Shown piece by piece: positions 3,720 to 45,010 of a stretch of DNA of 64,000 nt. Under the pieces are notes generated by a model. It searched no databases. It was not told the DNA's origin and was given only the letters and a program-made list of their open reading frames with translations. Origin of the DNA: a virus. Its lineage: Duplodnaviria; Heunggongvirae; Uroviricota; Caudoviricetes. The stretch lies in IMG/VR virus record IMGVR_UViG_2734482790_000004. One strand, given 5' to 3'. How positions within the stretch are numbered: position 1 is the first letter of the stretch; each line of letters opens with the position of its first letter. The translations under genes were made by a program, and so were the position numbers.

Positions 3720-5639
3720 ATGGAACAGTTCAATATCAATAAAGGGGTGACGATCAAGCCTGGGCTTGACGTGCTTCCCCCGCCAGTGACTGATGATGAA
3801 TATCGCGCATTAATGGCCGGTGAGGACCGCTATCTGATGACGGAATCCAACACCCTGGAGGAAATCGAGGCTACGTTCTTCTATGACACGCCGATCCACT
3901 GGTGTGCTACGGATTTACTGGAGGCGATTAGTTCTACTCGTTTGCAGTTACACCGGACCATGCAGGCATTTGTCCGGGCATTGAACCAGAAGCTGAATGG
4001 TACCGGAATCTCTGCGGGGAGTGATAAAACGGGGGATGTGGCCCAGAGCGGCGCGCGCGCGATCGGCGGTGCTGAAATTGGCCGGGCACGTAACGTTAAC
4101 GGGCTGCCGGTCCTGCCAGCCATTATTCCGCTCAGTGATGGTCAGACTATCAGCATTCTGTTTCATAGCCCGACAGCGGAAAACCGGATCACCAATAGCG
4201 ATACGCTGGTTGCTTTCCAGTTCTTACTGAATAAAAAAGACGTTACTCACACCGTTGCTCCGATGAGTGGACGTGATATGACGCTGGCGCAGGTCACCAT
4301 GAAACTTGCCAACCTTGCAGAGAAAAACTCGGCAAAATTTCAGCGTGCGCAGAAGAAGAAAAAAGCCCTTGTTGATGAAATAACCCAACTACAGGCTGAC
4401 AGTGACCAGAAAGAGGATGCCATGAGCGACCTCGCGGATCAGGTGGCAGCGGTAGAAGGGCAGAAGGTAGATCTGGAGCAGAAAATTAACGCTGTTGCAT
4501 CGGAAGCGGATTCTCTTTATGAAGAGAATGAGCGTTTGCAGACGGAGATTGATCAGCTCAATCGAACTGGTGGGCGCGAAACCATTGCTCCTGCGGGGAT
4601 GACTGGTGGACACTCTCGCGCGATGACGGATCGCCTTGCAAGTATCAAAAATCGTATGCATATGAACGGGGAAGTGACGCTCAGTAATGGTGCATCAATG
4701 AAGCAATTCATTGAGGACGGTGAAGGGTATATCCAGTTAACCGATTCGGATGGCAGCGTGTACATGATCAAGGCTAAATCCATACAGGGTGTGGACATGG
4801 CAGATGCGATCGGCAAGCTGTTTAAAGCCTATAAAGCGGGTAATGTATCGGAATACCTGGTCCAACCAGAAGAACATAAACCGGAAAACGTCGAACCTGA
4901 ACCAGCGGAGGATACCGGTAGCTCTTCGCCTGAACCAGAAGTCTCTGTAGGTGCATATCGATATGCCCTGCAAATGCGTCCGGCGGCCCCTGGCGCAATA
5001 CCTGAAGGTAACAAAGCAATTCTGCCGCGCCCTGATGAAGGTGACCCGTATTATGAATATGCACGCTACGGCATTGCTACTTACGATACCCCGCTTTCTG
5101 ATCAGCAAATGAGTGAGTACGACCTGAAGTTATTGCCTCGCGAGGATTCTTTCGACTTCCTGGCGAAGACACTTACTAATGGTCCGTTTGGCAAATATGC
5201 ACAAAAAGCTCTGGAGCTGGCCACCAGCTCACCAGACGAGTTCCGCGTAATGCTGAAAACTCAGTTTCAAAAAACTTTCCCCAATATTGCGTTTCCGGGG
5301 GGCGCTGGCACCGAGAAAATGGTGCAGAGCATGATCAATGCATTGCAGGCCGAAGTCGGTGAGATTACTCAGCCAGAACCTGCCCCGGCACAGCCTGATG
5401 AAACGGTTAGCGAAGCAGATGCAGAGGCTAATAAAGCCATTGAATATCTCAATAACGTGATGGATATGCAAAGCACTGACATGGCGGAGATCCGTAACGC
5501 CCGGGGTAATGTCCGGGAAGCGATTGCAGCCCTTCAGGCTGCCGGGCGTTTTGAGGAAAACGAAGAGCTGGTTAATGGCGCTGCTCGCCACCTGGCTGAT
5601 CTGCTGGTAGCAATCCAGAAAGCGGGGGTAGCGGCATGA
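3720..5639 (+). CDS. darA: DarA-like antirestriction/capsid internal protein (639 aa)
   Basis: 639-aa ORF in operon with downstream small and large genes; size and context match P1 DarA. Confidence 0.75.
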   Translation: MEQFNINKGVTIKPGLDVLPPPVTDDEYRALMAGEDRYLMTESNTLEEIEATFFYDTPIHWCATDLLEAISSTRLQLHRTMQAFVRALNQKLNGTGISAGSDKTGDVAQSGARAIGGAEIGRARNVNGLPVLPAIIPLSDGQTISILFHSPTAENRITNSDTLVAFQFLLNKKDVTHTVAPMSGRDMTLAQVTMKLANLAEKNSAKFQRAQKKKKALVDEITQLQADSDQKEDAMSDLADQVAAVEGQKVDLEQKINAVASEADSLYEENERLQTEIDQLNRTGGRETIAPAGMTGGHSRAMTDRLASIKNRMHMNGEVTLSNGASMKQFIEDGEGYIQLTDSDGSVYMIKAKSIQGVDMADAIGKLFKAYKAGNVSEYLVQPEEHKPENVEPEPAEDTGSSSPEPEVSVGAYRYALQMRPAAPGAIPEGNKAILPRPDEGDPYYEYARYGIATYDTPLSDQQMSEYDLKLLPREDSFDFLAKTLTNGPFGKYAQKALELATSSPDEFRVMLKTQFQKTFPNIAFPGGAGTEKMVQSMINALQAEVGEITQPEPAPAQPDETVSEADAEANKAIEYLNNVMDMQSTDMAEIRNARGNVREAIAALQAAGRFEENEELVNGAARHLADLLVAIQKAGVAA

Positions 5640-11663: not shown

Positions 11664-11910
11664 ACTCCGGCAGCTCCGCCGACTTTCGACAATGAAGTTA
11701 TCGCTGGCGGCGATAGTTTTCGACTCGATTTTCATGGCGGTATATGTGCTCAATGAGACGTGGCCACTGGAACCGCTATTGTATGCTGGGCTTCGACTGT
11801 GCCTGACATTTTTGAGCATGGCTGCAAGATTGATGCAGCAGAAAGAAACCGCTTCAGATTGTCCACGCCGCGCGGTGCGCAAATATATGGCACGCAGGCG
11901 AAGGCGATAA
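11656..11910 (+). CDS. small membrane protein overlapping lyz stop (84 aa)
   Basis: ATG overlaps the last lyz codons; hydrophobic segments; followed by a terminator at 11924-11949. Confidence 0.4.
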   Translation: MNKLRQLRRLSTMKLSLAAIVFDSIFMAVYVLNETWPLEPLLYAGLRLCLTFLSMAARLMQQKETASDCPRRAVRKYMARRRRR

Positions 11911-11923
11911 TAGTTAACGATAA

Positions 11924-11949
11924 CCCCGGCAGCCGCCGGGGTTATTTTT
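11924..11949 (+). terminator. rho-independent terminator (CCCCGGC agcc GCCGGGG TTATTTTT)
   Basis: GC stem plus T-run; lies between convergent lyz-side and head-gene operons. Confidence 0.7.
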
Positions 11950-11954
11950 GGTGG

Positions 11955-14685
<2,731 letters not shown>

Positions 14686-22568: not shown

Positions 22569-23585
22569 TTAGTAAGTTCTATTTTTTTTATCTATTATAT
22601 TACAAAAAACATTTAATACATTTTTATTATTCCAGCTATATCCAGATGATGAAATGGAGGAAATGATATGATAAAAAGAATCCTCTAGCTTCAAGAACTC
22701 TATTTTATACTCTCTTCCGTTTTTTATTACCGATTTGATTGAGTGCCTCAATTTGTCTTTTATTTTTTTTGCTTCTGGAATTTTATCGTTAAGTTTTCTA
22801 AAGAAATCAGATACCTCTGTTTTATCTATAACCCTAACCCCATAGCAGGAAAAATAGTAATCTTTAATAGGTTGCAATAGTTCCCCTCGGGAAACAAGGA
22901 AAATATTGGAGGACATTACGTTGTCCCGTGAAAATACCTTATATTCATTTATAATAGCCTTTAGGTTCGCGTCACTTAGAGAATAGCCAAGGATAACAAT
23001 AGTGTTTTCATGTAGAACTGTGCTTAGTTTATTAGAAAAGTAAGAATTACCATTTATAAATCTGAAATAATCCTCGCTAGTAACAACCATGTCTGATGGG
23101 GAGTCTATAGAACCGTGAACATGGTAGACTTTAACCTCACAATTATATTTTGGAATTGGCAGGCCGGGGGTGATTGTACACGTTCGATTCTCTCCAGCCA
23201 GCTTTTCTGCTAACTTGTCATAATTTGTCGTAATTACTTTAAATGTGTTTTCTTTGAAAAAGTCTTGAATATATTCAATTGATGGATCAAGTTCGATTGA
23301 GGCTATGATTTTCTCAATCTCTTGGTAAATATTTTTCCCCGAAAGTATAAATTTTAGTGCAATAACCTGAGCAGCTTCTTCAAGGCTAAGGTCTTTTGCT
23401 TTTCCATCAGGAAATAATTCCTCTTTGAGTGAGTCACCATCCTTCAATAAACCGCACAGTTGCTCCAATAAAGATTGCCAACTTGGGGCTTTATCATCAG
23501 AAACAGCCTTTGAAAATCCAGTGCCTGTAAGAAAGCACAGCCTATGTGTAGCCGCTGCATAGGCAATTTCTATATACTCGCTCAT
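22569..23585 (-). CDS. SIR2-like (SIR2_2 family) putative NAD-depleting defence effector (338 aa)
   Basis: Motifs FLTGTGFS, TTNYDKL, YHVHGSI and ILGYSLSD match the SIR2_2 family pattern (GAGxS / TTNYD / HxHG / GYSxxD); GGAG RBS; gene and surroundings are markedly AT-rich. Confidence 0.7.
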   Translation of the reverse strand: MSEYIEIAYAAATHRLCFLTGTGFSKAVSDDKAPSWQSLLEQLCGLLKDGDSLKEELFPDGKAKDLSLEEAAQVIALKFILSGKNIYQEIEKIIASIELDPSIEYIQDFFKENTFKVITTNYDKLAEKLAGENRTCTITPGLPIPKYNCEVKVYHVHGSIDSPSDMVVTSEDYFRFINGNSYFSNKLSTVLHENTIVILGYSLSDANLKAIINEYKVFSRDNVMSSNIFLVSRGELLQPIKDYYFSCYGVRVIDKTEVSDFFRKLNDKIPEAKKIKDKLRHSIKSVIKNGREYKIEFLKLEDSFYHIISSISSSGYSWNNKNVLNVFCNIIDKKNRTY

Positions 23586-30189: not shown

Positions 30190-31382
30190 TAATCATCATC
30201 CCCGTACAGTTTGCGGGTAACTTCTTCGTCTTCCTCCTCGTCTTCGTCCAGATCCTGTTCAAGCCATGCTTCGTTTGATATGCCTTCCGCATCGACATCA
30301 CCATAACCACCTGTATCGACGATATCGGCAATTTCTTCTCTACGATGCTCAATCCACAATGCCGCATCAGCGCGGCGGCTGGCGGCCCGTTCTCGCGCGA
30401 TTTTATCCAGATCTTCAAGTGATGGAGCGCCAGATGCTGTTTGGTTTTCCTCATCATCGGTATTGGTCTTAGGAGCACGCAGATCGGCTTTGATTTGCTC
30501 CAGCATCAGGGGCGGCACTTTTCCTCCATGCGCCTCGATGAATTCAGCCGCTTCCAGCACTGACCAGTTATTTTCACGCTTTCGTTCGTATGCCAGCTTA
30601 ACAATGCCAGCTTGCCCCATAGATAAAGCGTGCTTTTCCGCCTCCCGGCTTTCTTTTCGATAGTTATTCCGGATGCTGTAAATGGTGTTGATCAGGCTGC
30701 TTATCTGCGCGGAACAGCTGTTTAGCATGCTCGCGATACGGTATTCAGGCGGAGTACCTTCATCATCGTCTTTTTGCTGATCTCGCATTTCCTGCACCAG
30801 GCGAATACACGTATCCCTGGCGTTCTCCAGCATAAGGAGATGAGAAAGTGACTTTTCCAGAAGAGTGGTTTCCAGAACATCGGCCCCGGACCGACGCAAC
30901 ATAGCGCGCGCGGCCTTCCGCGCTTCAATGTTATCTATCAGGTAATCGTCAGCTTCGAATTCAAAGCGTTCACCATCATCATCCAGGGTGTCGCGTTCCA
31001 GGCGATCACGTAAGGTCCGGTGGGCGCGGGTGATCACGTCATGATCATCTGAACGATCATTTATGCGCTTATTTTGGCGCTTCGCATTCTCGACTGCGGC
31101 ACTGACAACGGCATTAACTCTTTGTTTTTCCGCTGTTTCAGCCGCAATGTGATCACCTGCATGTTGATCATTAGAGTGATCAATGATCATGCTTTTTAGA
31201 GGCTTCCTGACAGGCTTATTTGGCTTGCGGCTGTCCGCTGTCCTGGTGTCTTCTTTGAAGGCACGGAGATAACGACGTGCGGTATTAGGGTTAAGATTAA
31301 ACTCGGCGGCATACTGTGCGATGGTGTAACCACCATCTCGCGCCAGGCGAGCAAAATTCTTCTTGTGATCGTCCCAGGTCAC
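30189..31382 (-). CDS. pacA: terminase small subunit PacA (397 aa), contains pac site
   Basis: 397 aa with acidic C-terminal tail; pac hexamer repeats lie inside the gene. Confidence 0.85.
31027..31192. other. pac packaging site (clusters of TGATCA/GATCAC hexamers with Dam GATC sites)
   Basis: Four hexamers at 31031-31060 and three at 31151-31190 flank a central spacer. Confidence 0.7.
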
Positions 31383-31467
31383 TTATGCTTCCTTTCGTAA
31401 AAACTCTTTTTGACGCGAGGGTAACGAAAGTCACATGTCAAAAGGCCCGGAACGGGCAAGCAATCAA

Positions 31468-31920
31468 TCAGATACGTGCGGATGTGGCATTACCGTAATG
31501 ACGGTGCTGACGGGCTACCTTATTGAAAAGTTGACGCGCCATTACCCAAGGCTGGTGTTCCCGGCGTTCCTTTTCGTCCTGCGTCATATAGAGTTCGTTC
31601 TGGAGTTTTTCATCAAACCGGCGCGGCGCGCGGCTGCGGCGAAAGAATTCAGGATTCAGAGAGTGGATCTGAAATCTACGTGGGCGTGTACTGTCATCAA
31701 TCAAAACAGACGAATACTTAGACACAGCGATAGCCTTTAAGCGCAGATAAACGTCGCGCTTATCGACATCCAGATGCGGGTATTCCTTTTCAAGGATTGC
31801 TGCGAGTTCTTTCGCTGATAGAAGAGATTTGGTGCGGATCATGTAATCCGCAATCTCATACGATGTTATTCGTAAGTGATTTATTTCCATGAAGTGGCGT
31901 CCCTGCCAGTTAAGTAACAT
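31468..31920 (-). CDS. lpa: late promoter activator Lpa-like (150 aa)
   Basis: 150-aa basic protein directly upstream of pacA as in P1. Confidence 0.55.
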   Translation of the reverse strand: MLLNWQGRHFMEINHLRITSYEIADYMIRTKSLLSAKELAAILEKEYPHLDVDKRDVYLRLKAIAVSKYSSVLIDDSTRPRRFQIHSLNPEFFRRSRAPRRFDEKLQNELYMTQDEKERREHQPWVMARQLFNKVARQHRHYGNATSARI

Positions 31921-31990
31921 CCTGTCACCTACTGATTAGCCCATGTCAACTAATCAACGTGGAATATAATACCCTAGATTAAATAAATAG

Positions 31991-32007
31991 CAATACATTA
32001 GAGCAAT
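31991..32007 (-). promoter_or_regulatory. C1 operator-like site upstream of lpa
   Basis: CAATACATTAGAGCAAT; core ATTAGAGCAAT conserved. Confidence 0.45.
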
Positions 32008-32008
32008 T

Positions 32009-33052
32009 TTATCTAACGTTCGACGAGTGACTTGTGATAGCGCCGACTCCAAGCGCGTAATCAAAGAACAATCGTTGATGCATCGCCAGCCTACCGTGCG
32101 TCTTCTCCCAATTATCGCGGTCACGCTCAATATCACGTTGGCATGACTGGCACAGAGGAATTGCGTAAATGTCATGCGCGCATAATCGACTATGACGAAC
32201 GATATAAGGCGTAATGTGAGCGCCAGCTCCCGCCGCTCCACACCCACAGCATGGACGGGAAGCAACAAAGTCCATGTACTCAGGTAATTTTAGCGATTGC
32301 AGTTTTGGGATTTTGAAATGCGCCATGCCAGGGTCGGAGTCAACATCCACAGGGCATACTTTTGCACGCATCGGCGCGGCGCGTTCTTCCATCATCTGAA
32401 CATATGCTGTAGCGCGATCGTCATACGGGCGAATATCCGCCTCTTTCAGAGGTCCGCTATCCTGCGTTGCGGCTTTCATCTTATTTATTGATATACGGCA
32501 AACTTCTTCCGGCATCAGGTGCATCATGTTGCGCATGAAAGCCCACCAGCACAGTTCCTGAATACTTAAATCATGGCCATCTGAAAGCCCCATTTCCTGA
32601 CGGGCGACATCCAGTATCCAGTTAACGCGATTATTATGCAGCGTTTCTTTCAGCTCATTAAAACCACGCATCCGGTAATGGTTATCGTGATGCCAGCACA
32701 ACAACACCGCGCTATTATCTCGTTCAGCGTGGACAATATGGTTGTCACACCAGCTACGATCTGCGGCCTGGCATCGCCCCTCTTTCCTGCGCAACCACGC
32801 CACCAGCGCGTCAATTCCACCAATACGACGAAACAGCTCATCGCTGTTAAAAAACGGCTGCAACGCCTCATTTGTTGCCATGGTTTGCTCGGAAACAACG
32901 AGGCCGTCGTCCATGTGCTCGATTAACTCACGCGGCACCGGCTCCATAATAAATTTACGGCCAGCCTCCACCAGCTTTCTGACTTCCTGATCCACTTTGA
33001 ATGTGGCGACGCCAAGCTCTTTTTGTACAAAGGGAGTAATAATGGCTTTCAC
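32009..33052 (-). CDS. hypothetical protein (347 aa), position of P1 pdcB
   Basis: Cys/His-rich protein between doc and lpa. Confidence 0.5.
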
Positions 33053-33079
33053 ATCACACCTTTCATCACTGATTGGGCT

Positions 33080-33280
33080 TTATCTGCTGCCCGGCATTCT
33101 CTGTTTAAGCACAACCATTTCCTGACGGCATAACACAGCAATAGCGGTCCTGGCACCAATTTGCTTACCAACCAGGTATTGCTTTACCTCGCGGCGACTC
33201 ACGCCATCAAGAAGCATCTTTAACGCTTCACGGGACAACTTGTTGTATTTACGTGCCATTAATCTACTCCGCAGAACCAT
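33080..33280 (-). CDS. small basic protein (position of P1 pdcA); start uncertain
   Basis: 66-aa ORF downstream of doc; overlaps the doc 3' end at the ORF-track start. Confidence 0.3.
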
Positions 33281-33644
33281 ACAATCTACGTAACGTGTCG
33301 GCGACAGAAGATACAGATATCTCGCCAGTCGCAGCGCCTACAGTAAGGTCTGCCAGTTCAGGTGAATCAAATACCTGCACCCCGTTACGGCGTAGAAATA
33401 GCAGCGCGCTGTTTAGCGCGGTACGCTTATTGGCATCATTGAATATATGCCCTCTCGCTGTAGCCACCAGGTAGGTGGCGGAGACTTCGAAAAGGTCGGT
33501 GATATCTTCGTAGGCAACTCTGGCCTGAACTCTCCCGATAATGGCCTCTGCCCTACCCGGATCTGACATGCCCGGCAGGCCGCCGTAGCGGTTTATATTC
33601 GCATCATGAAGCGCAATAAGTTCTTCCGGTGATATATGCCTCAT
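33264..33644 (-). CDS. doc: Doc toxin, Fic-family (126 aa)
   Basis: 126 aa; Fic-like HIFNDANKR motif; preceded by phd. Confidence 0.9.
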
Positions 33645-33865
33645 TATCGGTTAACCAGTTCCTTGTTGGTGGAGTCCAGGGTGTCAAACAGGGATGCAAA
33701 TTCAGCATCCAGCGCCGCTTTTTTGTAGGCTTCGAAAGTAGCCTTGCTGACAATTACTGCTGGCTCACGGCCTCTGCGGGTGATTTCAACCTCTTCCCCG
33801 GCTTCAACATTGTTGAGCACTTCAGAAAGGTTGCCACGCGCGGTACGGAAGTTAATGGATTGCAT
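33644..33865 (-). CDS. phd: Phd antitoxin (73 aa from [16 protein letters not shown])
   Basis: Recognisable Phd sequence; GTGTAC palindromes in the upstream region. Confidence 0.9.
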
Positions 33866-34041
33866 AAACACCTCGTGTACTCGTTATGTGTACACGATTA
33901 TAAACTTCACAGGCATAAAGCACCAGCACTTTGCGGCTTAACAAACCTCTAGGCAGGTCATTCGTAGCCTAATGTCCGAACTGTTAAAGCATCCAAGTTG
34001 CTGTAGAATCACCGCCAATTACATAAGCCTGAAATAAGTGG

Positions 34042-35604
34042 ATGAAAATGACAAGTATTCAACAACGTGCAGAGCTTCATCGTCAAATCTGGCAAATTGC
34101 TAACGATGTCAGGGGTTCGGTCGATGGATGGGATTTTAAGCAATACGTTCTGGGCGCACTTTTCTACCGTTTTATCAGCGAAAATTTTTCCAGCTATATT
34201 GAAGCCGGTGATGACAGCATCTGTTATGCGAAACTGGATGACAGCGTAATTACTGATGACATTAAAGACGATGCCATCAAAACCAAAGGCTACTTCATCT
34301 ACCCAAGTCAGCTTTTCTGCAACGTAGCTGCGAAAGCAAATACCAATGACAGACTGAACGCAGATTTAAACAGCATCTTCGTTGCTATCGAAAGTTCTGC
34401 TTACGGTTATCCTTCAGAAGCAGACATCAAAGGTTTGTTTGCTGATTTCGATACCACCAGTAACCGCCTGGGTAACACCGTTAAGGATAAAAATGCCCGC
34501 CTGGCCGCGGTTCTGAAAGGGGTTGAAGGGTTAAAGCTTGGCGACTTTAACGAACATCAGATTGACCTGTTCGGCGATGCCTATGAGTTCCTGATTTCTA
34601 ACTATGCCGCGAATGCCGGTAAGTCAGGCGGCGAGTTCTTTACACCGCAGCACGTCTCTAAGCTGATTGCACAACTGGCTATGCACGGGCAGACCCACGT
34701 TAACAAAATCTACGACCCGGCAGCAGGTTCCGGTTCTCTGTTATTGCAGGCTAAAAAGCAGTTTGATGACCACATCATCGAAGAAGGTTTTTTTGGTCAG
34801 GAAATCAACCATACGACCTATAACCTGGCGCGTATGAACATGTTTTTGCACAACATCAACTACGACAAGTTTGATATCAAGCTGGGCAATACGCTGACTG
34901 AGCCGCACTTCAGAGATGAAAAACCGTTTGATGCCATCGTTTCTAACCCGCCGTATTCGGTGAAATGGATTGGCAGCGATGACCCGACGCTGATTAACGA
35001 TGAGCGTTTTGCCCCGGCTGGCGTTCTGGCCCCCAAATCCAAAGCTGACTTTGCGTTTGTATTACATGCGCTGAACTATCTTTCGGCCAAAGGTCGTGCT
35101 GCGATTGTCTGCTTCCCGGGTATTTTTTACCGTGGCGGCGCAGAGCAGAAAATCCGTCAGTATCTGGTCGATAATAACTATGTCGAAACCGTAATTTCAC
35201 TGGCTCCGAACCTGTTCTTTGGCACCACCATTGCCGTAAACATTCTGGTTCTGTCCAAACATAAAACGGATACCAACGTTCAGTTTATTGATGCCAGCGA
35301 ACTGTTCAAAAAAGAGACCAACAACAATATCCTGACCGATGCCCATATCGAACAGATTATGCAGGTATTTGCCAGCAAGGAAGATGTTGCTCATCTGGCA
35401 AAATCTGTCGCGTTCGAAGCCGTTGTCGCGAATGACTATAACCTGTCGGTGAGCAGCTATGTGGAAGCGAAAGATAACCGCGAAATTATCAATATTGCTG
35501 AACTGAATGCAGAGCTGAAAACCACGGTCAGCAAAATCGACCAGTTGCGTAAAGATATTGATGCAATTGTGGCTGAAATTGAAGGCTGCGAGGTGCAGAA
35601 ATGA
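34042..35604 (+). CDS. hsdM: type I (EcoR124-like, type IC) restriction-modification methyltransferase HsdM (520 aa)
   Basis: N6-adenine MTase motifs ([14 protein letters not shown]); N-terminus [22 protein letters not shown] as recalled for EcoR124I HsdM. Confidence 0.9.
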
Positions 35605-36807
35605 GCGAGTTGAGTTATCTGGAAAAATTGATGGATGGGGTTGAGGTTGAGTGGTTGCCACTCTCAAAAGTATTCAACTTAAGGAATGGTTATACACCGT
35701 CTAAAACTAAAAAAGAATTTTGGGCGAATGGTGATATACCTTGGTTCAGAATGGATGACATACGTGAAAATGGTAGAATTCTAGGGAATTCACTTCAAAA
35801 AAATTTCATCCTGCGCCGTAAAAGGGGGGAAACTATTTCCTGAAAATTCAATATTAATATCAACGTCGGCAACAATTGGTGAGCATGCTTTAATCACTGT
35901 ACCTCATCTAGCCAATCAAAGGTTTACATGTTTGGCTTTAAAAGAGTCTTATGCTGATTGCTTTGATATTAAATTTTTATTTTACTACTGTTTTTCTTTA
36001 GCTGAGTGGTGCCGAAAAAACACAACGATGTCCAGTTTTGCGTCTGTTGATATGGATGGATTCAAAAAATTTTTAATCCCTCGCCCCTGCCCGGATAATC
36101 CGGAAAAATCCCTTGCCATCCAGTCTGAAATCGTTCGGATTCTGGATAAGTTTACTGCACTTACCGCTGAGCTTACCGCTGAGCTTAATATGCGTAAAAA
36201 ACAGTACAACTACTATCGCGACCAGTTGTTGAGTTTTAAAGAGGGTGAGGTTGAGTGGAAGACTTTGGGAACATTTGCAGATAATTTTGATTCTCTTAGA
36301 AAACCAATAACTAGTGGATTAAGGGAGACTGGAAATATTCCCTATTATGGTGCGTCAGGCATTGTTGATTACGTAAAAGATTATATTTTTGATGATGACC
36401 TGTTATTAATTTCTGAAGATGGTGCGAATCTTATTGCAAGAAATACCCCTATAGCTTTTAGCATTAGCGGTAAAACGTGGGTGAATAATCATGCTCATGT
36501 ACTTAAATTCAAAAACTACACTGAACAAAAATTTGTTGAATATTACTTAAACAATATCAATCTTACGCCGTACATATCAGGAGCAGCCCAGCCAAAGCTA
36601 AATAAGAAAAACTTAGAAAGTATCCGTATTCCTAATCCATCACTAAAAGAAAAAGAGCGGATTGTTACTATTCTGGATAAATTCGACACCCTGACTAACT
36701 CCATCACCGAAGGTCTCCCGCGTGAAATCGAGTTACGCCAGAAACAATACGAGTACTATCGTGATTTACTGTTCAGTTTCCCAAAACCTGAAACAGTCAG
36801 TAATTAA
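35601..36807 (+). pseudogene. hsdS: type IC specificity subunit HsdS interrupted by a 1-nt frameshift within TRD1
   Basis: 80-aa ORF (frame 0) and 291-aa ORF (frame +1) are both open across 35785-35840, which contains an A7 run (35797-35803) and a G6 run (35824-35829); central and C-terminal conserved regions and a TAEL x2 repeat are intact. Confidence 0.85.
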
Positions 36808-36928
36808 TTGACCATTGCTACCGACCGGGCCACCTTAACATCCGGTCTGTATATAGACTATTTTTTACACGCTGGAAGTCGCCCTTAAAGCTCTTCCGGC
36901 CCTTGCCAGACGGCACAAAGGATGCGCT

Positions 36929-39900
36929 ATGACTCATCAGACATACACCATTGCTGAATCCAATAACTTTATCGTTCTTGATAAGTACATCAAAGCTGAG
37001 CCAACAGGCGACAGCTACCAGAGCGAATCGGACCTGGAACGTGAACTGATTCAGGACCTGCAAAATCAGGGCTATGAATTTATACCCGTAAAATCACAGT
37101 CAGCGATGCTGGCCAACGTTCGGGAACAGCTTCAGAGCCTCAATGGTGTGATGTTTAATGACAGCGAGTGGCGGCGCTTCACGGAGCAGTATCTGGACAA
37201 CCCCAGCGATGGTATTCTGGATAAAATCCGTAAAATCCATATCGACTATATTTGCGACTTTATTTTTGATGACGAGCGTCTTGAGAACATCTATCTGATA
37301 GATAAAAAGAATCTCATGCGCAATAAGGTGCAGATTATCCAGCAGTTTGAACAGGCAGGTTCTCACGCTAACCGTTATGACGTAACTATCCTGGTTAATG
37401 GCTTGCCACTGGTGCAAATCGAACTGAAAAAGCGCGGCGTGGCGATTCGTGAGGCTTTCAACCAGATACATCGTTACAGTAAAGAGAGTTTTAACAGCGA
37501 AAACTCCCTGTTTAAGTATCTGCAACTGTTTGTCATTTCTAACGGCACCGATACCCGTTATTTTGCCAACACAACAAAGCGCGATAAAAACAGTTTTGAC
37601 TTCACCATGAACTGGGCGAAATCAGACAATACACTGATTAAAGACCTCAAAGACTTTACCGCTACCTTTTTCCAGAAACATACTCTGCTTAATGTTCTGG
37701 TGAACTACAGCGTTTTTGACAGTAGTCAGACGCTACTGGTGATGCGACCGTACCAGATTGCCGCCACCGAACGAATCTTATGGAAAATCAACAGCTCCTA
37801 TAAAGCGAAAAACTGGTCTACCCCCGAAAGCGGTGGCTTTATCTGGCACACCACCGGTTCTGGTAAAACCCTCACCAGCTTTAAAGCCGCGCGGCTGGCA
37901 ACAGAACTGGACTTTATTGATAAAGTCTTCTTCGTGGTCGACAGGAAAGACCTCGATTACCAGACTATGAAGGAATATCAGCGTTTTTCGCCAGATAGTG
38001 TTAACGGCTCGGAAAATACCGCAGGTCTAAAACGAAATCTGGATAAGGACGATAACAAAATTATCGTCACCACTATTCAGAAACTTAATAACCTGATGAA
38101 AGCAGAAAGCGACCTGCCTGTATACAATCAGCAAGTGGTGTTTATATTTGATGAATGCCACCGCAGCCAGTTTGGAGAAGCGCAGAAAAACCTGAAGAAG
38201 AAATTCAAACGCTATTATCAGTTTGGTTTTACCGGCACTCCTATTTTCCCGGAAAACGCTTTAGGTTCAGAAACGACCGCCAGCGTATTTGGTCGTGAAT
38301 TGCATTCGTATGTAATTACCGATGCGATTCGAGATGAAAAAGTGCTTAAATTCAAGGTGGACTACAACGATGTGCGGCCACAGTTTAAGTCTTTAGAGAC
38401 AGAAACTGACGAGAAAAAACTAAGTGCGGCTGAAAATCAGCAGGCGTTTCTTCATCCCATGCGTATTCAGGAAATCACGCAATATATTCTGAATAATTTC
38501 CGCCAGAAAACTCACCGTACCTTCCCTGGCTCAAAAGGTTTTAATGCTATGTTGGCAGTGAGCAGCGTGGATGCCGCGAAAGCCTATTATGCGACGTTTA
38601 AACGGTTACAAGAAGAAGCCGCTAATAAATCGGCTACCTATAAACCGCTGCGTATTGCGACAATCTTCTCCTTTGCCGCCAATGAAGAACAAAATGCCAT
38701 TGGTGAAATTTCCGATGAAACTTTTGATACCAGCGCAATGGACAGCAGTGCTAAAGAGTTTCTGGACGCTGCAATTCGTGAATATAACAGCCATTTTAAA
38801 ACTAACTTTAGCACCGACAGTAACGGTTTTCAGAACTACTATCGTGATTTAGCCCAGCGGGTTAAAAATCAGGATATCGATCTGCTAATTGTCGTGGGGA
38901 TGTTTTTAACCGGCTTCGATGCTCCAACATTGAACACGCTATTCGTCGATAAAAACTTGCGTTTTCACGGCCTGATGCAGGCATTTTCCCGCACCAACCG
39001 TATTTATGATGCAACTAAAACCTTCGGTAATATCGTCACTTTCCGGGATCTGGAACGCTCAACTATTGATGCCATAACGCTGTTTGGTGACAAAAACACC
39101 AAAAATGTGGTGTTAGAAAAGAGTTATACAGAGTATATGGAAGGCTTTACTGATGCTACTACTGGTGAAGCTAAACGCGGCTTCATGACAGTAGTTTCAG
39201 AACTGGAACAACGGTTCCCTGACCCTACCAGTATTGAAAGTGAAAAAGAGAAGAAAGACTTCGTTAAACTGTTTGGCGAATACCTGCGTGCCGAGAACAT
39301 CCTGCAAAACTATGATGAATTTGCCACGCTAAAAGCCCTGCAACAAATCGATCTTAGCGATCCTGTTGCGGTAGAAAAATTCAAAGCAGAACATTATGTG
39401 GATGATGAAAAGTTCGCTGAATTGCAAACAATTCGTCTCCCTGCTGATCGCAAGATTCAGGATTATCGTTCTGCCTATAACGATATTCGCGACTGGCAGC
39501 GCCGTGAGAAAGAAGCTGAGAAAAAAGAGAAATCAACCACTGACTGGGATGACGTAGTTTTTGAGGTCGATTTGCTGAAGTCTCAGGAAATAAACCTGGA
39601 TTATATCCTTGGACTGATTTTCGAACACAACAGACAAAATAAAGGCAAGGGCGAAATGATCGAAGAGGTCAAACGCTTAATTCGTTCAAGCCTAGGGAAC
39701 CGTGCTAAAGAGGGCCTGGTGGTCGATTTTATTCAGCAAACGAACCTGGATGATTTACCAGACAAAGCCAGTATCATTGAGGCATTCTTTACGTTTGCTC
39801 AACGCGAACAGCAACGTGAAGCAGAAGCATTGATAAAAGAAGAAAATCTCAATGAAGAGGCAGCAAAACGCTATATTCGCACGTCTTTAAAACGCGAATA

Positions 39901-40045
39901 CGCCACCGAAAATGGCACAGAATTAAACGAAACATTACCAAAACTTAGTCCGTTGAATCCGCAATATAAAACGAAAAAACAGGCAGTTTTCCAGAAAATC
40001 GTCTCGTTTATTGAGAAGTTTAAAGGCGTAGGCGGAAAAATATAG
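36929..40045 (+). CDS. hsdR: type I restriction endonuclease subunit HsdR (1038 aa)
   Basis: Superfamily-2 helicase motifs ([12 protein letters not shown]) and a 1038-aa length matching EcoR124I HsdR. Confidence 0.9.
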
Positions 40046-40123
40046 CCCAATTCGTGTTTTTCTTGCGGGTTCTTAATTAAACCCGCATGATACCATGGGG
40101 TTCCAAATGGCTAATATACTCCC

Positions 40124-40210
40124 TTACCCATGCGCGACGATGCCGCCAAAAGTGATAGAGAACAGCCAGAAATAGATCGCGGCCATAATGATTTTGAATG
40201 CCGTGTTCAT
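40124..40210 (-). CDS. small hydrophobic peptide (28 aa, MNTAFKIIMAAIYFWLFSITFGGIVAHG)
   Basis: Below the ORF-track size cutoff; AGGAG RBS 8 nt upstream; preceded by a C1 operator-like site and a perfect palindrome. Confidence 0.35.
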   Translation of the reverse strand: MNTAFKIIMAAIYFWLFSITFGGIVAHG

Positions 40211-40292
40211 ATTTTCAGCTCCTGTGATTGATTGGATACATGCCGCGCCTTGCGGCATGTTTTTATTTTCACTTTCTCTGTTTTAAAAATCA

Positions 40293-40309
40293 AGATTTAT
40301 TAGAGCAAT
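40293..40309 (-). promoter_or_regulatory. C1 operator-like site (AGATTTATTAGAGCAAT, 16/17)
   Basis: Near-consensus operator upstream of the small hydrophobic ORF. Confidence 0.55.
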
Positions 40310-40815
40310 TATTGTTGATGAAGAAGCGCATTTTCATATTCCCTGACCATTAACGTAAGTACGCCGTGACTCCTGAAAACACGCGCCACTTCAATCTTAT
40401 CTTCCAGCGCGAACGCAATTTTACTTAGACCAATTTTCTTCAGGAGATCAATCTTTGCAGGGCCGTCATTTCTGTCATCGGTGGCAGGACGCATAGATAG
40501 CAAAGGCTCAGCCCCATTTGTTACGTGCTTACGCAACCAAGCTCGTGTTTTATCCCTGGCTATCTCACAGCGCCCGGTTACAAACCAGAGAGTGTAAATG
40601 CTGGACAACTGGCGCACCATATCAATAACTGGAGTGATGGGAGCATCAGTGTCACAGGCAAGGTTAAACTCGTTCCAGTGCTCTGTTAATGCACCTTTGC
40701 CAGGTGGTGGAAGTAAATGCAGCCTGTCTTCCGTTGCCTCTGATATTGTTCCATCAATATCAACTATGACGATATACGGACGTTCCTGGTGTGCGTGTTT
40801 ATTGAAAATACTCAA
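40309..40815 (-). CDS. HAD-superfamily phosphatase-like protein (168 aa)
   Basis: N-terminal DIDGT motif characteristic of HAD phosphatases. Confidence 0.5.
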   Translation of the reverse strand: MSIFNKHAHQERPYIVIVDIDGTISEATEDRLHLLPPPGKGALTEHWNEFNLACDTDAPITPVIDMVRQLSSIYTLWFVTGRCEIARDKTRAWLRKHVTNGAEPLLSMRPATDDRNDGPAKIDLLKKIGLSKIAFALEDKIEVARVFRSHGVLTLMVREYENALLHQQ

Positions 40816-40887
40816 ATGCCCTCCTCATTGGACGAAAAAAATGCTGGTGGGCGCACTCCACCAGCATTAAAAGTGACACTGTAACTG

Positions 40888-42150
40888 TCAGCGAACGTAA
40901 ATAGTGCCGCCGTTCTCTTTTTCCCATGCATCGCTACGTGCATAGCAAACATCGAGAAGTCTTCTTGCCGCTGTTTCCTCTAAACCCAATTCGACAACCA
41001 ACTGCTCATGACGGCGGGTAACCACATCAAACAACGTATGCAGCCCTTTAGTTGCCAGTTCATCAATGAATTCCGGTTCGAACGGTAGCTCTGCATCTGC
41101 CAACATAACCTCTTGCGCCCACTCGACACGGCGGACCAGTTCCGGGCGGCGGCTTTCCATCTCTTTACAGATCAATTCATGGAAGAACTCTACCCAACCT
41201 TCCGGCTGGAACTCGCGGAAAATGGCCAACGGCTGGAAGTTTGGCATCAACCATTCGTTGATACGGATATCAATGGCATAGCCCATGTCGCAGCAGAACT
41301 GATAAGCAAAGTCCAGCTTAGAAACGATATAAGGACGCTCGTTATTGAACTCTTTAGGCGATGAGATCCCATAAGCCAGGAGGCGCGGGAAGAATGAGAT
41401 TTGCCCTAACGTCGGATGAAGTTTGCTTGCAGGGAAACGGCGCTCAGTAATGCCATACATTTCCTTCTTGAGCGTCGCAAATTTGGCATTCTCATTAACC
41501 AGCGCGGTAACCTCTGCTTTTTTATTAGCAAATGCCACGCGCGCTTCGCTTGCATCTTTAATAGTTTTTTTGAGCTGTTGGTTAAGGTCGGCGACCTGTT
41601 TACGCAGTTCCTGCCGCTCGCTTTTAGCTTTGTTATAGCGTTTCTCAAGGTTAAAAGGATCAAGTTTCATGATCTCTTTATATTGAGATTTTAGCGTTGA
41701 AATCTGTGAGTTCCGCAGTTCAACCATCGCGGTCATTTCATTGAGTTTTGTTTCCAGCTCAATGCTTATACGTTCGGCATTATCAGCACGCTGGTTGGCG
41801 TCATGCGTCGCATCGTCGATCGCATCCTGTTGCTGGCGTTTCAAATGTTCAATTTGCAGCTGAAGCTCTTCAATTTCTTTACCCTTCAGACCGAGATCCA
41901 ACTGCATATTTTCAGCTGCATCTACCAGGGAGTTATGGCTATCAGCTTCTGCGTTATAAACATCAATAAGCTGTGCGTGAAGCATCTCCGCTGACTGAAC
42001 CGCATTATCAAAAAAACGTGCTGTGAGGTCATCACAACTAACGCGGCGTTGCGCGGCCCGGATGTTCTGGATAATGGCCGGGATACCGGCATTCAGGACA
42101 TCAGGGATAGATACATTTTCGATTGATTGGTTTTGTGCTGAAGTGCTCAT
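40888..42150 (-). CDS. coiled-coil hypothetical protein (420 aa)
   Basis: Long heptad-rich central region; compact operon context. Confidence 0.5.
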   Translation of the reverse strand: MSTSAQNQSIENVSIPDVLNAGIPAIIQNIRAAQRRVSCDDLTARFFDNAVQSAEMLHAQLIDVYNAEADSHNSLVDAAENMQLDLGLKGKEIEELQLQIEHLKRQQQDAIDDATHDANQRADNAERISIELETKLNEMTAMVELRNSQISTLKSQYKEIMKLDPFNLEKRYNKAKSERQELRKQVADLNQQLKKTIKDASEARVAFANKKAEVTALVNENAKFATLKKEMYGITERRFPASKLHPTLGQISFFPRLLAYGISSPKEFNNERPYIVSKLDFAYQFCCDMGYAIDIRINEWLMPNFQPLAIFREFQPEGWVEFFHELICKEMESRRPELVRRVEWAQEVMLADAELPFEPEFIDELATKGLHTLFDVVTRRHEQLVVELGLEETAARRLLDVCYARSDAWEKENGGTIYVR

Positions 42151-42384
42151 TTCAAAGTTCCGTATTAGCTTGTGCTTCGGTCATTTTTCCTAAGTATGAA
42201 GGAGGAAGGACTACGCAATTTGTATCCAGTCCCTCACCTATGGCAGCCTGTAAAATTCTGGCTAAGGTGAGTCTCTTGTTGCGATACCTGGTGATGACAT
42301 GCCTGATACCGCCGGTCGGCGTAACAAAGGCGATCAGCCAGTAGTGATATTTCCGTCGGAATGGCCACATAGTGCACCCTGTAG

Positions 42385-42450
42385 ATTGCTCTAATAAAAA
42401 ACGTGATGAGTGTACATCACGTTTCAAAAATATGGAATTATTAGAGCAAT
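42385..42450. promoter_or_regulatory. pair of inverted C1 operator-like sites flanking a 10-bp perfect palindrome
   Basis: ATTGCTCTAATAAAAAA at 42385-42401, AAACGTGATG agtgta CATCACGTTT, then GGAATTATTAGAGCAAT at 42434-42450. Confidence 0.5.
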
Positions 42451-42451
42451 A

Positions 42452-43153
42452 TTATTCTGATTCTCGCTCAAAAAACGAGCTGATAAGGGGAAGCCAATCC
42501 TCTGACACTTCGCGAGGTCGCGGTTTGCCGTGGAAAAAGATTATTCGGCAGTCTTTTGGTAATGCCCCATTCCCCCTGGAGTAACGCGCGCTCGCATATT
42601 TCGAACCAGGTTCCACAACATCGGCCTTGTAACTTACAAACCATCCTGGATACAGATCCTGAAATGCTGGTGTATCATCGCCCATAACCTTTCGTAAGAA
42701 CCCCTGGTCACCCCAGCACTCAGTAGTGACACAACGAGAAATCCAACCTTCCGGATCTTGCCAGAATGAACTCCAGATATGCGCTTTAACACTATTTGGT
42801 ATCCACAGGGCACCGCTGCCACGATATTGTGGATGGTAAAAATCCCTAAGCATGGTGAAGCTGGTTGGTGGATGCTCTAGGATTGGGCGTATATCACCGG
42901 CAATAACCGTGTCCAAATCCAGATAGAACAGATCATCGGTTATATCCGGTCGGAACAACTCGATTTTCGCCCACCAGCCACGGCACTTTTGCCACTGGTT
43001 GATCAATGGGACAACTTTGACGCCAGGTACATGTAAACGCTTCAGGTCTGTCAGGCAAATAATTTCATAGCCTTTTGGCAGTTGATTAACCAGCCACTGC
43101 ACATCGGAAGCGTTATAGTCACCACCAGAGCGAAAAACTAAAGCAATCTTCAT
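42452..43153 (-). CDS. putative nucleotide-sugar glycosyltransferase-like protein (233 aa)
   Basis: DxD-like LDLDTV motif in a GT-A-like context; assignment tentative. Confidence 0.4.
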
Positions 43154-43842
43154 GCTGCACCATCACCTTTCACTTTCATCAATGTCAGGTTTCCGCAAAA
43201 TACGGCACCAGTGTCGATATACTGCTGATTCCAGAATGTCTTCGGGCTTTTCACCGGAGTGTGACCAAAGATAAAACGATCTGCGCCCGAAATTTCGCCA
43301 CCAATATCATCCATCGAATCACTGATACGCTCGCGCGCCCAGACAACGTTGAAAAGCGGCACCTCCTTACCGAATTGATATTCATTATCCGGATAGTCGG
43401 CATGGGCTATAACGATAGTTTCTTGCCCGGTGTTCAACTCAATGATATAGGGCAGTCGTCTTACCAACTCCACCAGCGCCCTGGCTAATATTTCCTGATC
43501 AGCGTCCAGCATGAAGAACCATTGACCGCCATTCATTAGCCAGTTATTCACGTTGCCATCAGGACTTAACGCATCAATCATCAGCCGCTCATGGTTGCCC
43601 ATAACCGCTCTGAACCATGGCATCTGTAATAGCTCCAGGCATTTAACATTTTCGGTGCCGCGATCGATAAGGTCGCCGACCGATATCAGTAAATCCTGCG
43701 CAGGGTCAAAATCCACACGATGGAGTTCGGACATCAGTCTGGTGTAGCAACCATGCAGATCACCAACAACCCAGATATTCCTGTATTTGGTACCGTCGAT
43801 ACGGTGATAAATTGTTGGTGCCGTCATGTATTCTTCAGCCAT
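43150..43842 (-). CDS. ppp: Ser/Thr protein phosphatase, lambda PPase-like (230 aa)
   Basis: Metallophosphatase motifs GDLHG, GDLIDRG, GNHE. Confidence 0.85.
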
Positions 43843-44450
43843 TCTTTAAGAGTCATCTGCGGAATACCTCCCATTTTCCCGCATGAAACAACGTCAATCT
43901 GTTCACGCGCAGACTGGAATAACAAAGGCAGGTGACTTAGATTTTTTGGCGTGCAGCCGGAATGAACGCGTGGTTCTTGCGTAGCGTCAACGCCCACCAG
44001 GGCTACATGTTTGAATCCGATATGGAAAGCCAGGTTCAGAGCACCATATGCACTATTGCCGCTGGCAATTTCATTCTCATCTTCGCAAAGGCCGAAATGT
44101 GCGGACCAGCGCCACGCCCACCACTCGGGAGAATTCGTATTTTTTGGCTCCGTGCCGCGCTCAGCCACACGACGGAAGCACAGAACGCCGTCTCTGACCT
44201 CACGTTCTTTAACATCGGGTAGCGCCATGCAATAACAAACACCACGGCGACGGCGGCCACGACCAACGCGCCGCATATTGTCTGGCGATGGATCAAGGGT
44301 GAAAAAATAAGAAGCGCGGTTAAGCCAGTCGATGGCCCCATTGACCGCTATAATCGGCACTCCGCGCGGCGCAACAAAGTTTGCGGCGCTTGGGCCACTG
44401 CCGACGATAATAACGCGATCACTGCCTCTAAATTTATTCTTGGGAAACAT
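43824..44450 (-). CDS. hypothetical Rossmann-like protein, paralog A (208 aa)
   Basis: IIVGSGPS ... IIAVN ... [12 protein letters not shown] ... VALVGVD; paralogous to the adjacent gene. Confidence 0.5.
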
Positions 44451-45010
44451 TGAATTGCACTGCTCCTACTTGCATTCAAAATATGTAAATCTGCGTGTTT
44501 TTTGCGGGTATCCAGGAACTGCTGTTGCCATTTTGAAATAGACACCTGCGTTGGATTCCGTAGGGCTTGAGGGTGCGCGCCATGCCAATGAAGGCCGTTT
44601 TGCAGAGAACAGTCATAGCCGACTAATACCACTACTTCAGCCCCTGATTCAGCAGCCAGACTGATAGCCTGCGCGCCGCTATTTACCCCTTCCGCCGGTC
44701 CACAATATCGCCTGTACTCCAACGAAAATGATTTCGCCGCCGCCAGGTTGGCTGTCACTTTGCGGAATCTCCCTCCCGGTATGGTGGATCCGTATTGCTT
44801 CCACCATGACAAATCACCGGCGTATAAGGCATAAATGTCATCGAACATCTGCCAGGAATTGTTAACCGCGATGATTGAACAGCCAGTTTTTTCTATAGCA
44901 GCACAGTCCTCACGAGTGAGTGACGGACCGCTACCGACACAAAAAACAGTCCTAGTTGCCCTGGGTGGTATGTTCATTCTCAGCTGCAAATTCAGCCTCC
45001 AGGCGAGCAT
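44348..45010 (-). CDS. hypothetical Rossmann-like protein, paralog B (220 aa; start uncertain)
   Basis: FCVGSGPS ... IIAVN ... GVNSGAQAISLA ... VVLVGYD. Confidence 0.5.
   Translation of the reverse strand: MLAWRLNLQLRMNIPPRATRTVFCVGSGPSLTREDCAAIEKTGCSIIAVNNSWQMFDDIYALYAGDLSWWKQYGSTIPGGRFRKVTANLAAAKSFSLEYRRYCGPAEGVNSGAQAISLAAESGAEVVVLVGYDCSLQNGLHWHGAHPQALRNPTQVSISKWQQQFLDTRKKHADLHILNASRSSAIQCFPRINLEAVIALLSSAVAQAPQTLLRRAECRL

Follow-up and report, generated by a model that had tools for sequence, protein, structure and literature searches.

The hsdS gene of a type IC restriction-modification cassette carried by an Escherichia coli phage-plasmid reads as disrupted by one extra A. The best explanation, to which we give a probability of about 80%, is that this EcoR124-family cassette lost hsdS to ordinary replication slippage and that the resulting allele is stably inherited, which leaves the cassette r-m-. 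The source molecule, plasmid unnamed2 of E. coli GmM062, is a P1-like phage-plasmid. The coordinates below are those of the window, that is, the whole stretch of 64,000 nucleotides that was analysed, in which the following features are needed:

33264-33644, minus strand: doc, from the ORF list and the RefSeq annotation
33644-33865, minus strand: phd antitoxin gene, from the ORF list and the RefSeq annotation of the source record
33897-33925, minus strand: phd promoter Pphd, placed through the blastn alignment by homology to the annotated P1 Pphd (87986-88014)
33942-40120, no strand assigned: type IC hsd cassette, 6179 bp, delimited by local blastn against P1 NC_005856 and by the P1 annotation
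34042-35604, plus strand: hsdM, 520 aa, intact, from phmmer and Pfam (HsdM_N, N6_Mtase)
35601-35843, plus strand: 5' fragment of hsdS, 80 aa, of which 67 are native residues and 13 are out of frame, then a stop
35785-36807, plus strand: 3' frame of hsdS, open to the stop at 36807, Pfam Methylase_S at 2e-34
35797-35803, plus strand: A7 run and site of the lesion, one A more (+1) than the A6 run that intact alleles have, from alignments and probe counts
35824-35829, plus strand: G6 run, unaltered, G6 in all intact relatives
36163-36186, plus strand: TAEL-TAEL, two tandem 12-bp repeats, read from the sequence
36835-36864, plus strand: promoter-like site in the gap from hsdS to hsdR, a candidate hsdR promoter, proposed from a consensus scan alone, 9/12 matches
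36929-40045, plus strand: hsdR, 1038 aa, intact, from phmmer and Pfam

The cassette takes the place of a defined piece of the P1 genome. In the local blastn comparison, homology to P1 was restricted to positions 31000-33941 and 40121-45000 of the window, and the junctions, at 33941/33942 and 40120/40121, map to positions 87970 and 84481 of P1, the P1 pmgT-humD segment (P1 84482-87969) being replaced by the hsd genes. The cassette is bordered by P1 phd-doc at its left end and by pap-proximal sequence at its right end, as in P1-borne type IC loci, and matches to the EcoDXXI and R124/3 hsd loci at the same junctions are already present in the P1 reference annotation. On comparison with the P1 sequence, the -10 element of Pphd falls at 33897-33902 and the -35 element at 33920-33925, with 16 nt between the promoter and the left junction of the cassette. 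Thus both the limits of the region and its position beside the phd promoter, as given in a preliminary description of this DNA, agree with the P1 alignment. Pfam PhdYeFM and Fic were matched on an identical contig. The phd-doc/pap flanks of type IC loci had been recorded in the P1 genome annotation and were not mentioned in the preliminary description. A literature search on P1-like phage-plasmids with hsdS found nothing relevant.

To which family does the cassette belong? Formally, the type IC family is defined by the complementation of subunits between its enzymes. Judged by its sequence, the region 33942-40120 is an hsdM-hsdS-hsdR cassette of type IC, the EcoR124 family. HsdR and HsdM are near-identical to the EcoR124 proteins from end to end: in phmmer comparisons HsdR scored 2278 bits with EcoR124I HsdR (2w00_A, 1-1038 on 1-1038) and HsdM 1160 bits with the EcoR124II M protein (7bst_D, 1-520 on 1-520), whereas EcoKI HsdM, of type IA, scored only 67 bits against HsdM. 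The Pfam domains of HsdR are HSDR_N, ResIII, SWI2_SNF2, a T1R_D3-like domain and the family-specific C-terminal domain EcoR124_C (1.9e-71). The genes are in the type IC order, and the hsdM stop and the hsdS ATG overlap as ATGA at 35601-35604. When its frame is repaired, HsdS is a protein of 401 aa that matches EcoR124 HsdS (7bst_A) at residues 1-26, 119-225 and 327-401; the conserved regions at its N terminus, its centre (TAELTAEL) and its C terminus are nearly the same as in EcoR124, while both target recognition domains (TRDs) diverge. These matches bear out what had been proposed for the family of the cassette beside phd-doc, for the lengths and positions of HsdM and HsdR, and for an HsdS with family-typical conserved regions around differing TRDs. 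The consensus promoter scan gave fewer sites than shuffled sequences and none upstream of hsdM; TAGAAT at 34004-34009, upstream of hsdM, is a candidate promoter element by eye only.

The closest named systems are EcoR124I and EcoR124II (plasmids R124 and R124/3), which share the order hsdM-hsdS-hsdR, an HsdR of 1038 aa and an HsdM of 520 aa with the cassette. EcoR124I also has two TAEL repeats and near-identical conserved regions of HsdS, and in R124/3 the sequence 3' of hsdR likewise matches P1. Since both TRDs differ from those of EcoR124, the specificity would be different, and unlike its EcoR124 counterparts hsdS is frameshifted here and presumably non-functional. EcoDXXI, a type IC system of plasmid pDXX1, resembles the cassette in its surroundings, with phd-doc upstream, pap-proximal sequence downstream and coinciding junctions; the P1 annotation gives 96-98% identity between P1 flank sequences and the flanks of the EcoDXXI locus. 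In contrast to the cassette, EcoDXXI is functional and has other TRDs and three TAEL repeats (PMC3874165) instead of two. The TAEL repeat determines spacer length in type IC HsdS (PMC3874165). This 12-bp repeat, which is the classical variable element of the family and was absent from the preliminary description, is present in 1, 2, 3 or 4 copies among relatives with the same TRD1. Note that the one-TAEL variants, and the G5 variants described below, were studied through protein sequences and metagenome contigs only.

How is hsdS broken? The two hsdS frames are both open over 35785-35840, a stretch that contains the A7 and the G6 run, and the ORFs and alignments confirm that the gene is split by a homopolymer frameshift. 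The A7 tract makes up codons 66-68, within TRD1; there the frame is broken by +1 and translation ends at the stop 35841-35843, so that no intact HsdS is encoded. The 80-aa fragment covers positions 4-57 of the 168 of the Pfam Methylase_S profile, only the first third of TRD1, and is predicted to be too short to work. The 3' frame, called by RefSeq as an ORF at 35875-36807, holds what remains of TRD1 and, beyond it, TRD2 flanked by the central and C-terminal conserved regions. It had been suggested that a one-base change in either tract would restore a protein of about 400 aa. A one-base deletion in A7 or in G6 does give a 401-aa ORF either way. Only the deletion in the A run, however, recreates the sequence of the intact relatives (...SLQKISSCAVKGGKLFPEN...), while the G deletion leaves nine foreign residues in TRD1. 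The G6 run was rejected as the lesion because intact relatives carry G6 too; the intact alleles L001, L002, L005, L007 and L008 all have A6, with G6 as in the window. The A7 run is unremarkable by itself, there being 16 runs of at least 7 nt in the whole window and several A6 runs in hsdS.

Is the extra A real? An error of sequencing or assembly at the homopolymer, with the true gene intact, could be suspected, as homopolymer indels are frequent in long-read assemblies and the plasmid contig of the source record comes from whole-genome shotgun sequencing. However, exact-sequence look-ups found the same truncated 80-aa product on 93 public contigs from NCBI, ENA and Logan, and this product has an old RefSeq accession (WP_072034468.1). 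The A7 tract is also present in two independent assemblies: L004 (ERR7420927), from an independent run, is 100% identical across 6004 bp of the cassette, and L012 (GCA_025796085.1) retains A7 despite 3 SNPs. Moreover, the same TRD1 reads A6 in more than 100 other assemblies made with many technologies. Sequencing error, one of the explanations offered earlier, was rejected on these look-ups and contigs and has next to no chance of being true. The gene neighbourhood was identical in all of the 24 contigs read (24/24). A7 was checked at the DNA level in L003, L004 and L012, and for the 93 contigs it is implied by the product.

The comparators were uniform in tract length. A6 was found in 100 E. 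coli genome records, in 17 plasmids and in 8 of 10 metagenome contigs; the remaining two (L015 and L017) have AAAGAA, which is six bases, interrupted. Six bases thus occupy the tract in 127/127 other records or contigs (117 genome or plasmid records and 10 metagenome contigs). Three partial 100% matches span under 80% of the probe and therefore cannot be full-length A7 copies. A pattern scan for the tract in the collection of viral contigs (viral_contigs) gave no match. Between the A7 allele and the closest intact ones, which lie in other contexts, there are 7-8 substitutions in hsdS and a divergence of about 3-4% over the cassette. The three intact near-identical proteins (P0021-P0023) are encoded beside hot/humD, or on a contig that ends just upstream of hsdM. 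We considered them as the phase-ON allele of the same clone and rejected this on their other contexts; since their cassettes are only about 96.6-97% identical, they are sister alleles, not revertants.

These counts bear on the proposal that hsdS is a contingency locus, in which slipped-strand mispairing at A6/A7, and perhaps at G6/G5, toggles HsdS and with it both modification and restriction. The lesion is indeed a +1 change in a homopolymer, and a second homopolymer frameshift (G5) occurs 21 nt downstream in other lineages. A precedent is NgoAV of Neisseria gonorrhoeae, whose type IC hsdS is known to switch through a poly-G tract (PMC7383803, PMC3874165), and Neisseria G7 tracts are able to phase-vary (PMC7383803). 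However, the tract has six bases in all the other records and contigs, as A6 except for the two AAAGAA metagenome contigs, and A7 is unchanged in the three copies seen at the DNA level and the 93 product contigs even though SNPs and TAEL copy number vary. Otherwise identical alleles show no tract-length polymorphism, and the exact repaired 401-aa HsdS that an A6 revertant would encode was absent among about 15 billion proteins. The tracts are not conserved features either: in more distant homologues the A tract is interrupted (L015 and L017), and both tracts are in L009, which has CAAAGAAT and GGGTGGG. E. coli is proficient in mismatch repair and is not known for contingency loci with tracts so short, both of which count against switching. 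In a survey of phase-variable hsd genes a mononucleotide run had to reach 9 nt to be counted (PMC7383803), against A7 and G6 here and A6 in intact alleles. In the same source, hsdS repeats are "invariably" located between the TRDs, with a truncated product that retains TRD1 and the dimerisation helix (PMC7383803). In NgoAV, where a frameshift associated with a homopolymer likewise divides hsdS into ORFs, the tract comes after TRD1 and its length alters specificity, whereas the cassette has its tract inside TRD1 and shows no tract-length variation; since the reading frame is lost as early as codon 67, still within TRD1, the N-terminal product is not expected to function. A reversible switch, which the preliminary description had also raised, is thus unsupported and looks unlikely.

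Then could the downstream frame still yield some activity? Two ways can be thought of, an internal start that gives a half-HsdS homodimer of palindromic specificity, or rare transcriptional slippage or +1 frameshifting at A7 that gives a little full-length HsdS; taken together, we regard them as very unlikely. Type IC half-truncations do work: EcoR124I(delta50), EcoDXXI deltaC and EcoDXXI deltaN show that the type IC S subunit tolerates reduction to one TRD plus a conserved helix, an N-terminal deletion recognises GAAY N5 RTTC, and wild-type enzyme was reconstituted from separately expressed halves (PMC3874165). The first canonical in-frame start of the 3' frame is TTG 35932, with a weak AAGG 9 nt upstream; it opens a frame of 291 aa that is intact, is conserved on 61 contigs and holds the whole of TRD2 and both conserved regions. 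However, there is no in-frame ATG, GTG or TTG before 35932, and an out-of-frame ATG at 35928 competes, being better placed for the same AAGG. The product would still carry 45 aa left over from TRD1, and the break lies within a TRD, while the functional truncations were all cut between domains (PMC3874165) and had proper starts. As for slippage, selection against slippage-prone A/T runs in genes is evident only from about 9 nt in many bacterial genomes (PMC1088944), and inspection of the sequence found no +1 frameshifting signal. The specific version, in which 35932-36807 is translated weakly and homodimerises into a natural C-half HsdS of palindromic TRD2-TRD2 specificity, seems to us highly improbable. 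If true, it would match in nature what was engineered in EcoDXXI deltaN, and it would mirror NgoAV, where the N-half is the one used; either this or switching would be a natural E. coli case of specificity change by truncation.

We therefore return to a heritable loss of function. The lesion and its position, its inheritance over independent samples and the lack of tract-length polymorphism were observed directly, and A7 against A6 in intact relatives, with the allele on many contigs, supports the inactivating mutation that had been one of the original suggestions; we infer from this that methylation and restriction are lost. In the proposed scenario, replication slippage from A6 to A7 at 35797-35803 would have knocked out hsdS, leaving no HsdS able to bind DNA or to assemble with HsdM. 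An M2S1 methyltransferase with this specificity could then not form, and nor could the R2M2S1 endonuclease. The r-m- state would be harmless to the host, because restriction likewise requires HsdS. The allele would then have been inherited stably and spread along with the plasmid lineage. Since hsdM and hsdR are still intact, the frameshift is probably recent in evolution, and reversion would be conceivable at ordinary mutation rates only. Three observations stand as counterpoints to loss of function: two frameshift alleles, A7 and G5, lie in the same 45-nt stretch, a possible hint of contingency; some product could come from the downstream frame of 291 aa, which is intact; and no decay is visible in hsdM or hsdR.

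The A7 allele is not the only knock-out in this cassette family. A G5 frameshift at the G6 site is found in P0004 (84 aa, 9 contigs) and in the metagenome contigs L013 and L019, and a related hsdS is disrupted by IS1 (H46). Another is disrupted in the P1-like phage phi456 (OR339795), where the cassette also lies beside phd, with hsdM and hsdR about 96% identical and hsdS inactivated; it differs in that the cause is an IS5 insertion instead of a frameshift, and it has different TRDs and three TAEL repeats. Inactivation of hsdS thus appears to recur in the family by several routes, namely A7, G5, IS1 and IS5.

For annotation, the locus should be described as a type IC restriction-modification system whose hsdS is disrupted, the two pieces being entered as one pseudogene and not as two S subunits, and the plasmid is to be regarded as probably r-m- for this specificity. 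Beyond annotation the significance is small. Several independent hsdS knock-outs on P1-like elements make a modest population-genetic observation, which suggests that the restriction carried by such phage-plasmids is often dispensable or counter-selected.

The cassette (33942-40120, 6179 bp) contains the following features, with gene limits taken from the ORF list:

34042-35604, hsdM, 520 aa
35601-35843, 5' ORF of hsdS, 80 aa, whose ATG overlaps the hsdM stop
second frame of hsdS, ending at 36807
36163-36186, two TAEL repeats in hsdS
36929-40045, hsdR, 1038 aa

To which family does it belong? Residues 1-1038 of HsdR align with EcoR124I HsdR (2w00) at 2278 bits. The alignment of HsdM with the M protein of EcoR124II (7bst_D) spans residues 1-520 and scores 1160 bits, compared with 67 bits for EcoKI M, a type IA protein. 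The Pfam domains are HsdM_N and N6_Mtase for HsdM, and HSDR_N, ResIII, SWI2_SNF2, T1R_D3-like and EcoR124_C for HsdR. Repaired in silico, HsdS has 401 aa. Its N-terminal 26 residues, its central conserved region including TAELTAEL and its C-terminal 75 residues are near-identical to EcoR124 HsdS (7bst_A), and its two target-recognition domains (TRDs) have weak similarity to those of 7bst_A. The cassette is a type IC system with an uncharacterised specificity different from that of EcoR124. The preliminary description was accurate about the ORFs, the EcoR124 family as judged from HsdR and HsdM, the divergent TRDs and the frameshift in hsdS. Given two TAEL repeats and the role of the repeat (PMC3874165), a short EcoR124I-like spacer may be predicted for HsdS. 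In RefSeq, each piece of hsdS is a CDS of its own, labelled "restriction endonuclease subunit S".

What broke hsdS? When the region where its two frames overlap was aligned with intact relatives sharing TRD1 (Klebsiella CP094899 and E. coli AP027903), a single difference was found: the window has A7 at 35797-35803 and the relatives have A6, while the G6 run is the same in all. Deleting one A gives a 401-aa protein with ...SLQKISSCAVKGGKLFPEN..., in exact agreement with intact homologues; deleting one G also restores an ORF of 401 aa, in which nine residues are foreign. The 80-aa product consists of 67 native and 13 out-of-frame residues and spans positions 4-57 of 168 of the Methylase_S profile; most of TRD1 is therefore missing from it, as is every conserved helix for assembly with HsdM. 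A run such as A7 is nothing unusual here: runs of at least 7 nt occur 16 times in the window, and A6 occurs at four other places in hsdS. Three origins had been offered for the split gene, and the inactivating mutation is the one supported: one A is added relative to A6, the allele is heritable and no variation in tract length was seen.

Sequencing error at the A run, the second origin offered, has a negligible probability. In the protein collection, 93 contigs (NCBI, ENA and Logan) carry the exact 80-aa sequence and 61 carry the downstream 291-aa ORF. A7 is also carried by two independent contigs: L004 (Logan assembly, run ERR7420927), identical to the window at 100% over 6004 bp of the cassette, and L012 (GCA_025796085.1), with three SNPs at 35560, 36115 and 39645. 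The P1-like neighbourhood is alike in all 24 contigs read for the 80-aa sequence. The A7 allele is real, heritable and old enough for slight diversification.

Is the tract then a slow reversible switch, the third origin offered? We consider this quite unlikely. A probe of 91 nt with the tracts at its centre retrieved 104 E. coli complete-genome records, among which only the source record matches exactly over the full length; in 100 others the whole probe aligns to a target of 90 nt, one base fewer, and the tract comparison covers these 100, the remaining three records being partial matches. All 17 plasmid matches likewise have a 90-nt target. When metagenome contigs were scanned with a pattern allowing a variable gap, all 10 matches had six bases at the tract (AAAAAA in 8, AAAGAA in 2). 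The exact A6 revertant of the A7 protein is absent among about 15 billion proteins. Three near-identical intact proteins (P0021-P0023) differ in 1-2 residues, and their DNA has 7-8 substitutions in hsdS, in cassettes only about 96.6-97% identical to that of the window; two of these cassettes adjoin hot/humD by metG, and the third is on a contig truncated a short way upstream of hsdM. Both tracts are broken up by other bases in a Salmonella homologue (L009: CAAAGAAT, GGGTGGG). A survey of repeat-bearing type I genes counted mononucleotide tracts from at least 9 nt; in it, the repeats of hsdS were without exception located between the TRDs, which keeps the truncated product functional, as in NgoAV (PMC7383803; PMC3874165). 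In the window's hsdS the tract is shorter than 9 nt and lies inside TRD1.

The likeliest state of the cassette, with a probability of about 0.8, is r-m-. With HsdS lost, neither the methyltransferase nor the endonuclease would assemble. By what is established for type I enzymes, restriction also needs HsdS, and for this reason the loss of hsdS would be harmless to the host. Both hsdM and hsdR are still intact, and their products could in principle serve a type IC HsdS from another locus in the same cell. Residual activity, by translation of the downstream frame or by rare transcriptional slippage, is very improbable. The downstream frame does hold TRD2 together with the two helices, and activity is known for type IC half-subunits, EcoDXXI deltaN among them (PMC3874165). 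However, its sole in-frame start is TTG at 35932 with a weak AAGG, for which an out-of-frame ATG at 35928 competes, and the product would keep a TRD1 remnant. As for slippage, selection against A/T runs prone to it is evident only at about 9 nt in many bacterial genomes (PMC1088944).

Broken hsdS genes are also found in relatives. An independent frameshift allele with the same TRD1, G5 instead of G6 at the run matching 35824-35829, occurs in other lineages: in P0004, an 84-aa product on 9 contigs, one of them a 2.7-Mb chromosome contig, and in metagenome contigs L013 and L019. A chromosomal copy (H46) has IS1 in hsdS, and in phage phi456 (L011, OR339795) IS5 interrupts a type IC hsdS (11702-14139) with three TAEL repeats, at the same position beside phd; its record labels the transposase gene "putative baseplate hub protein". 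Such repeated breakage fits recurrent loss of function at mutational hot spots and does not suggest a designed switch. Genes with the same TRD1 have 1, 2, 3 or 4 TAEL copies and several different TRD2s (L002, L013-L022, P0019); the single-repeat P0019, on 5 contigs, lies within the frameshifted lineage. TAEL-number and TRD variation is the known mode of specificity change in the family (PMC3874165), and here domains are naturally shuffled and spacer lengths vary, as between EcoR124I and EcoR124II. The Salmonella enterica homologue (CP191473, HsdS 85% identical) has a 392-aa AAA_13 protein at 4208-5386 between hsdS and hsdR, a layout like that of EcoprrI with its PrrC-type anticodon nuclease. 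In complete E. coli genomes, 95 of the 104 TRD1-bearing cassette copies are chromosomal. Two E. coli contigs examined (L007, L008) have the cassette beside P1-like hot and humD, adjoining metG and mrp, which suggests an integrated P1-derived island there.

The window belongs to the 96.5-kb circular plasmid unnamed2 of E. coli GmM062 (NZ_JCANKX010000003.1; hsdS query match 100%), a P1-like phage-plasmid with c1, the pacA/pacB terminase genes, lpa, pdcB, doc and phd annotated beside the cassette. Features around the cassette are:

3720-5639, plus strand, DarA (DarA_N, DarA_C)
6014-9001, plus strand, DdrB-ParB domain protein
22569-23585, minus strand, SIR2_2 protein, 338 aa (Pfam 7.8e-24)
33897-33925, minus strand, phd promoter, mapped from the P1 annotation, 16 nt from the cassette junction

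By local blastn, homology to P1 (NC_005856) is limited to 31000-33941 and 40121-45000, and the cassette therefore substitutes for the pmgT-humD block of P1. The arrangement beside phd is already known. According to the P1 reference annotation, P1 87969-88647 has 98% identity to sequence upstream of the EcoDXXI hsd locus, and the hsd genes of EcoDXXI and R124/3 are followed downstream by sequence matching P1 84263-84482. The same junction is present in the P1-like phages phi456 and vB_EcoM-673R5, and conserved parts of the window's hsdS have matches in 890 plasmid records. On the minus strand, about 40265-40309 corresponds to the pmgT promoters (C1-controlled in P1) and the operator OpmgT; with the cassette in place of pmgT, transcription from these promoters would enter the 3' end of hsdR in antisense. 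At 40238-40260 there is a strong hairpin with a T-run after it. DarA and the DdrB-ParB protein are parts of the anti-restriction system that P1 carries in its capsid against type I enzymes; their genes share a plasmid with a broken type I cassette. The SIR2_2 gene lies between a mat-like ORF and darB, the position of the type III res/mod genes in P1. EcoP1I seems to have been exchanged for this SIR2-type defence candidate. Both the kind of system and its location were known before, and the lesion is an ordinary one; if the exchange is true, the broken type IC cassette would be the sole restriction-modification system within the window.
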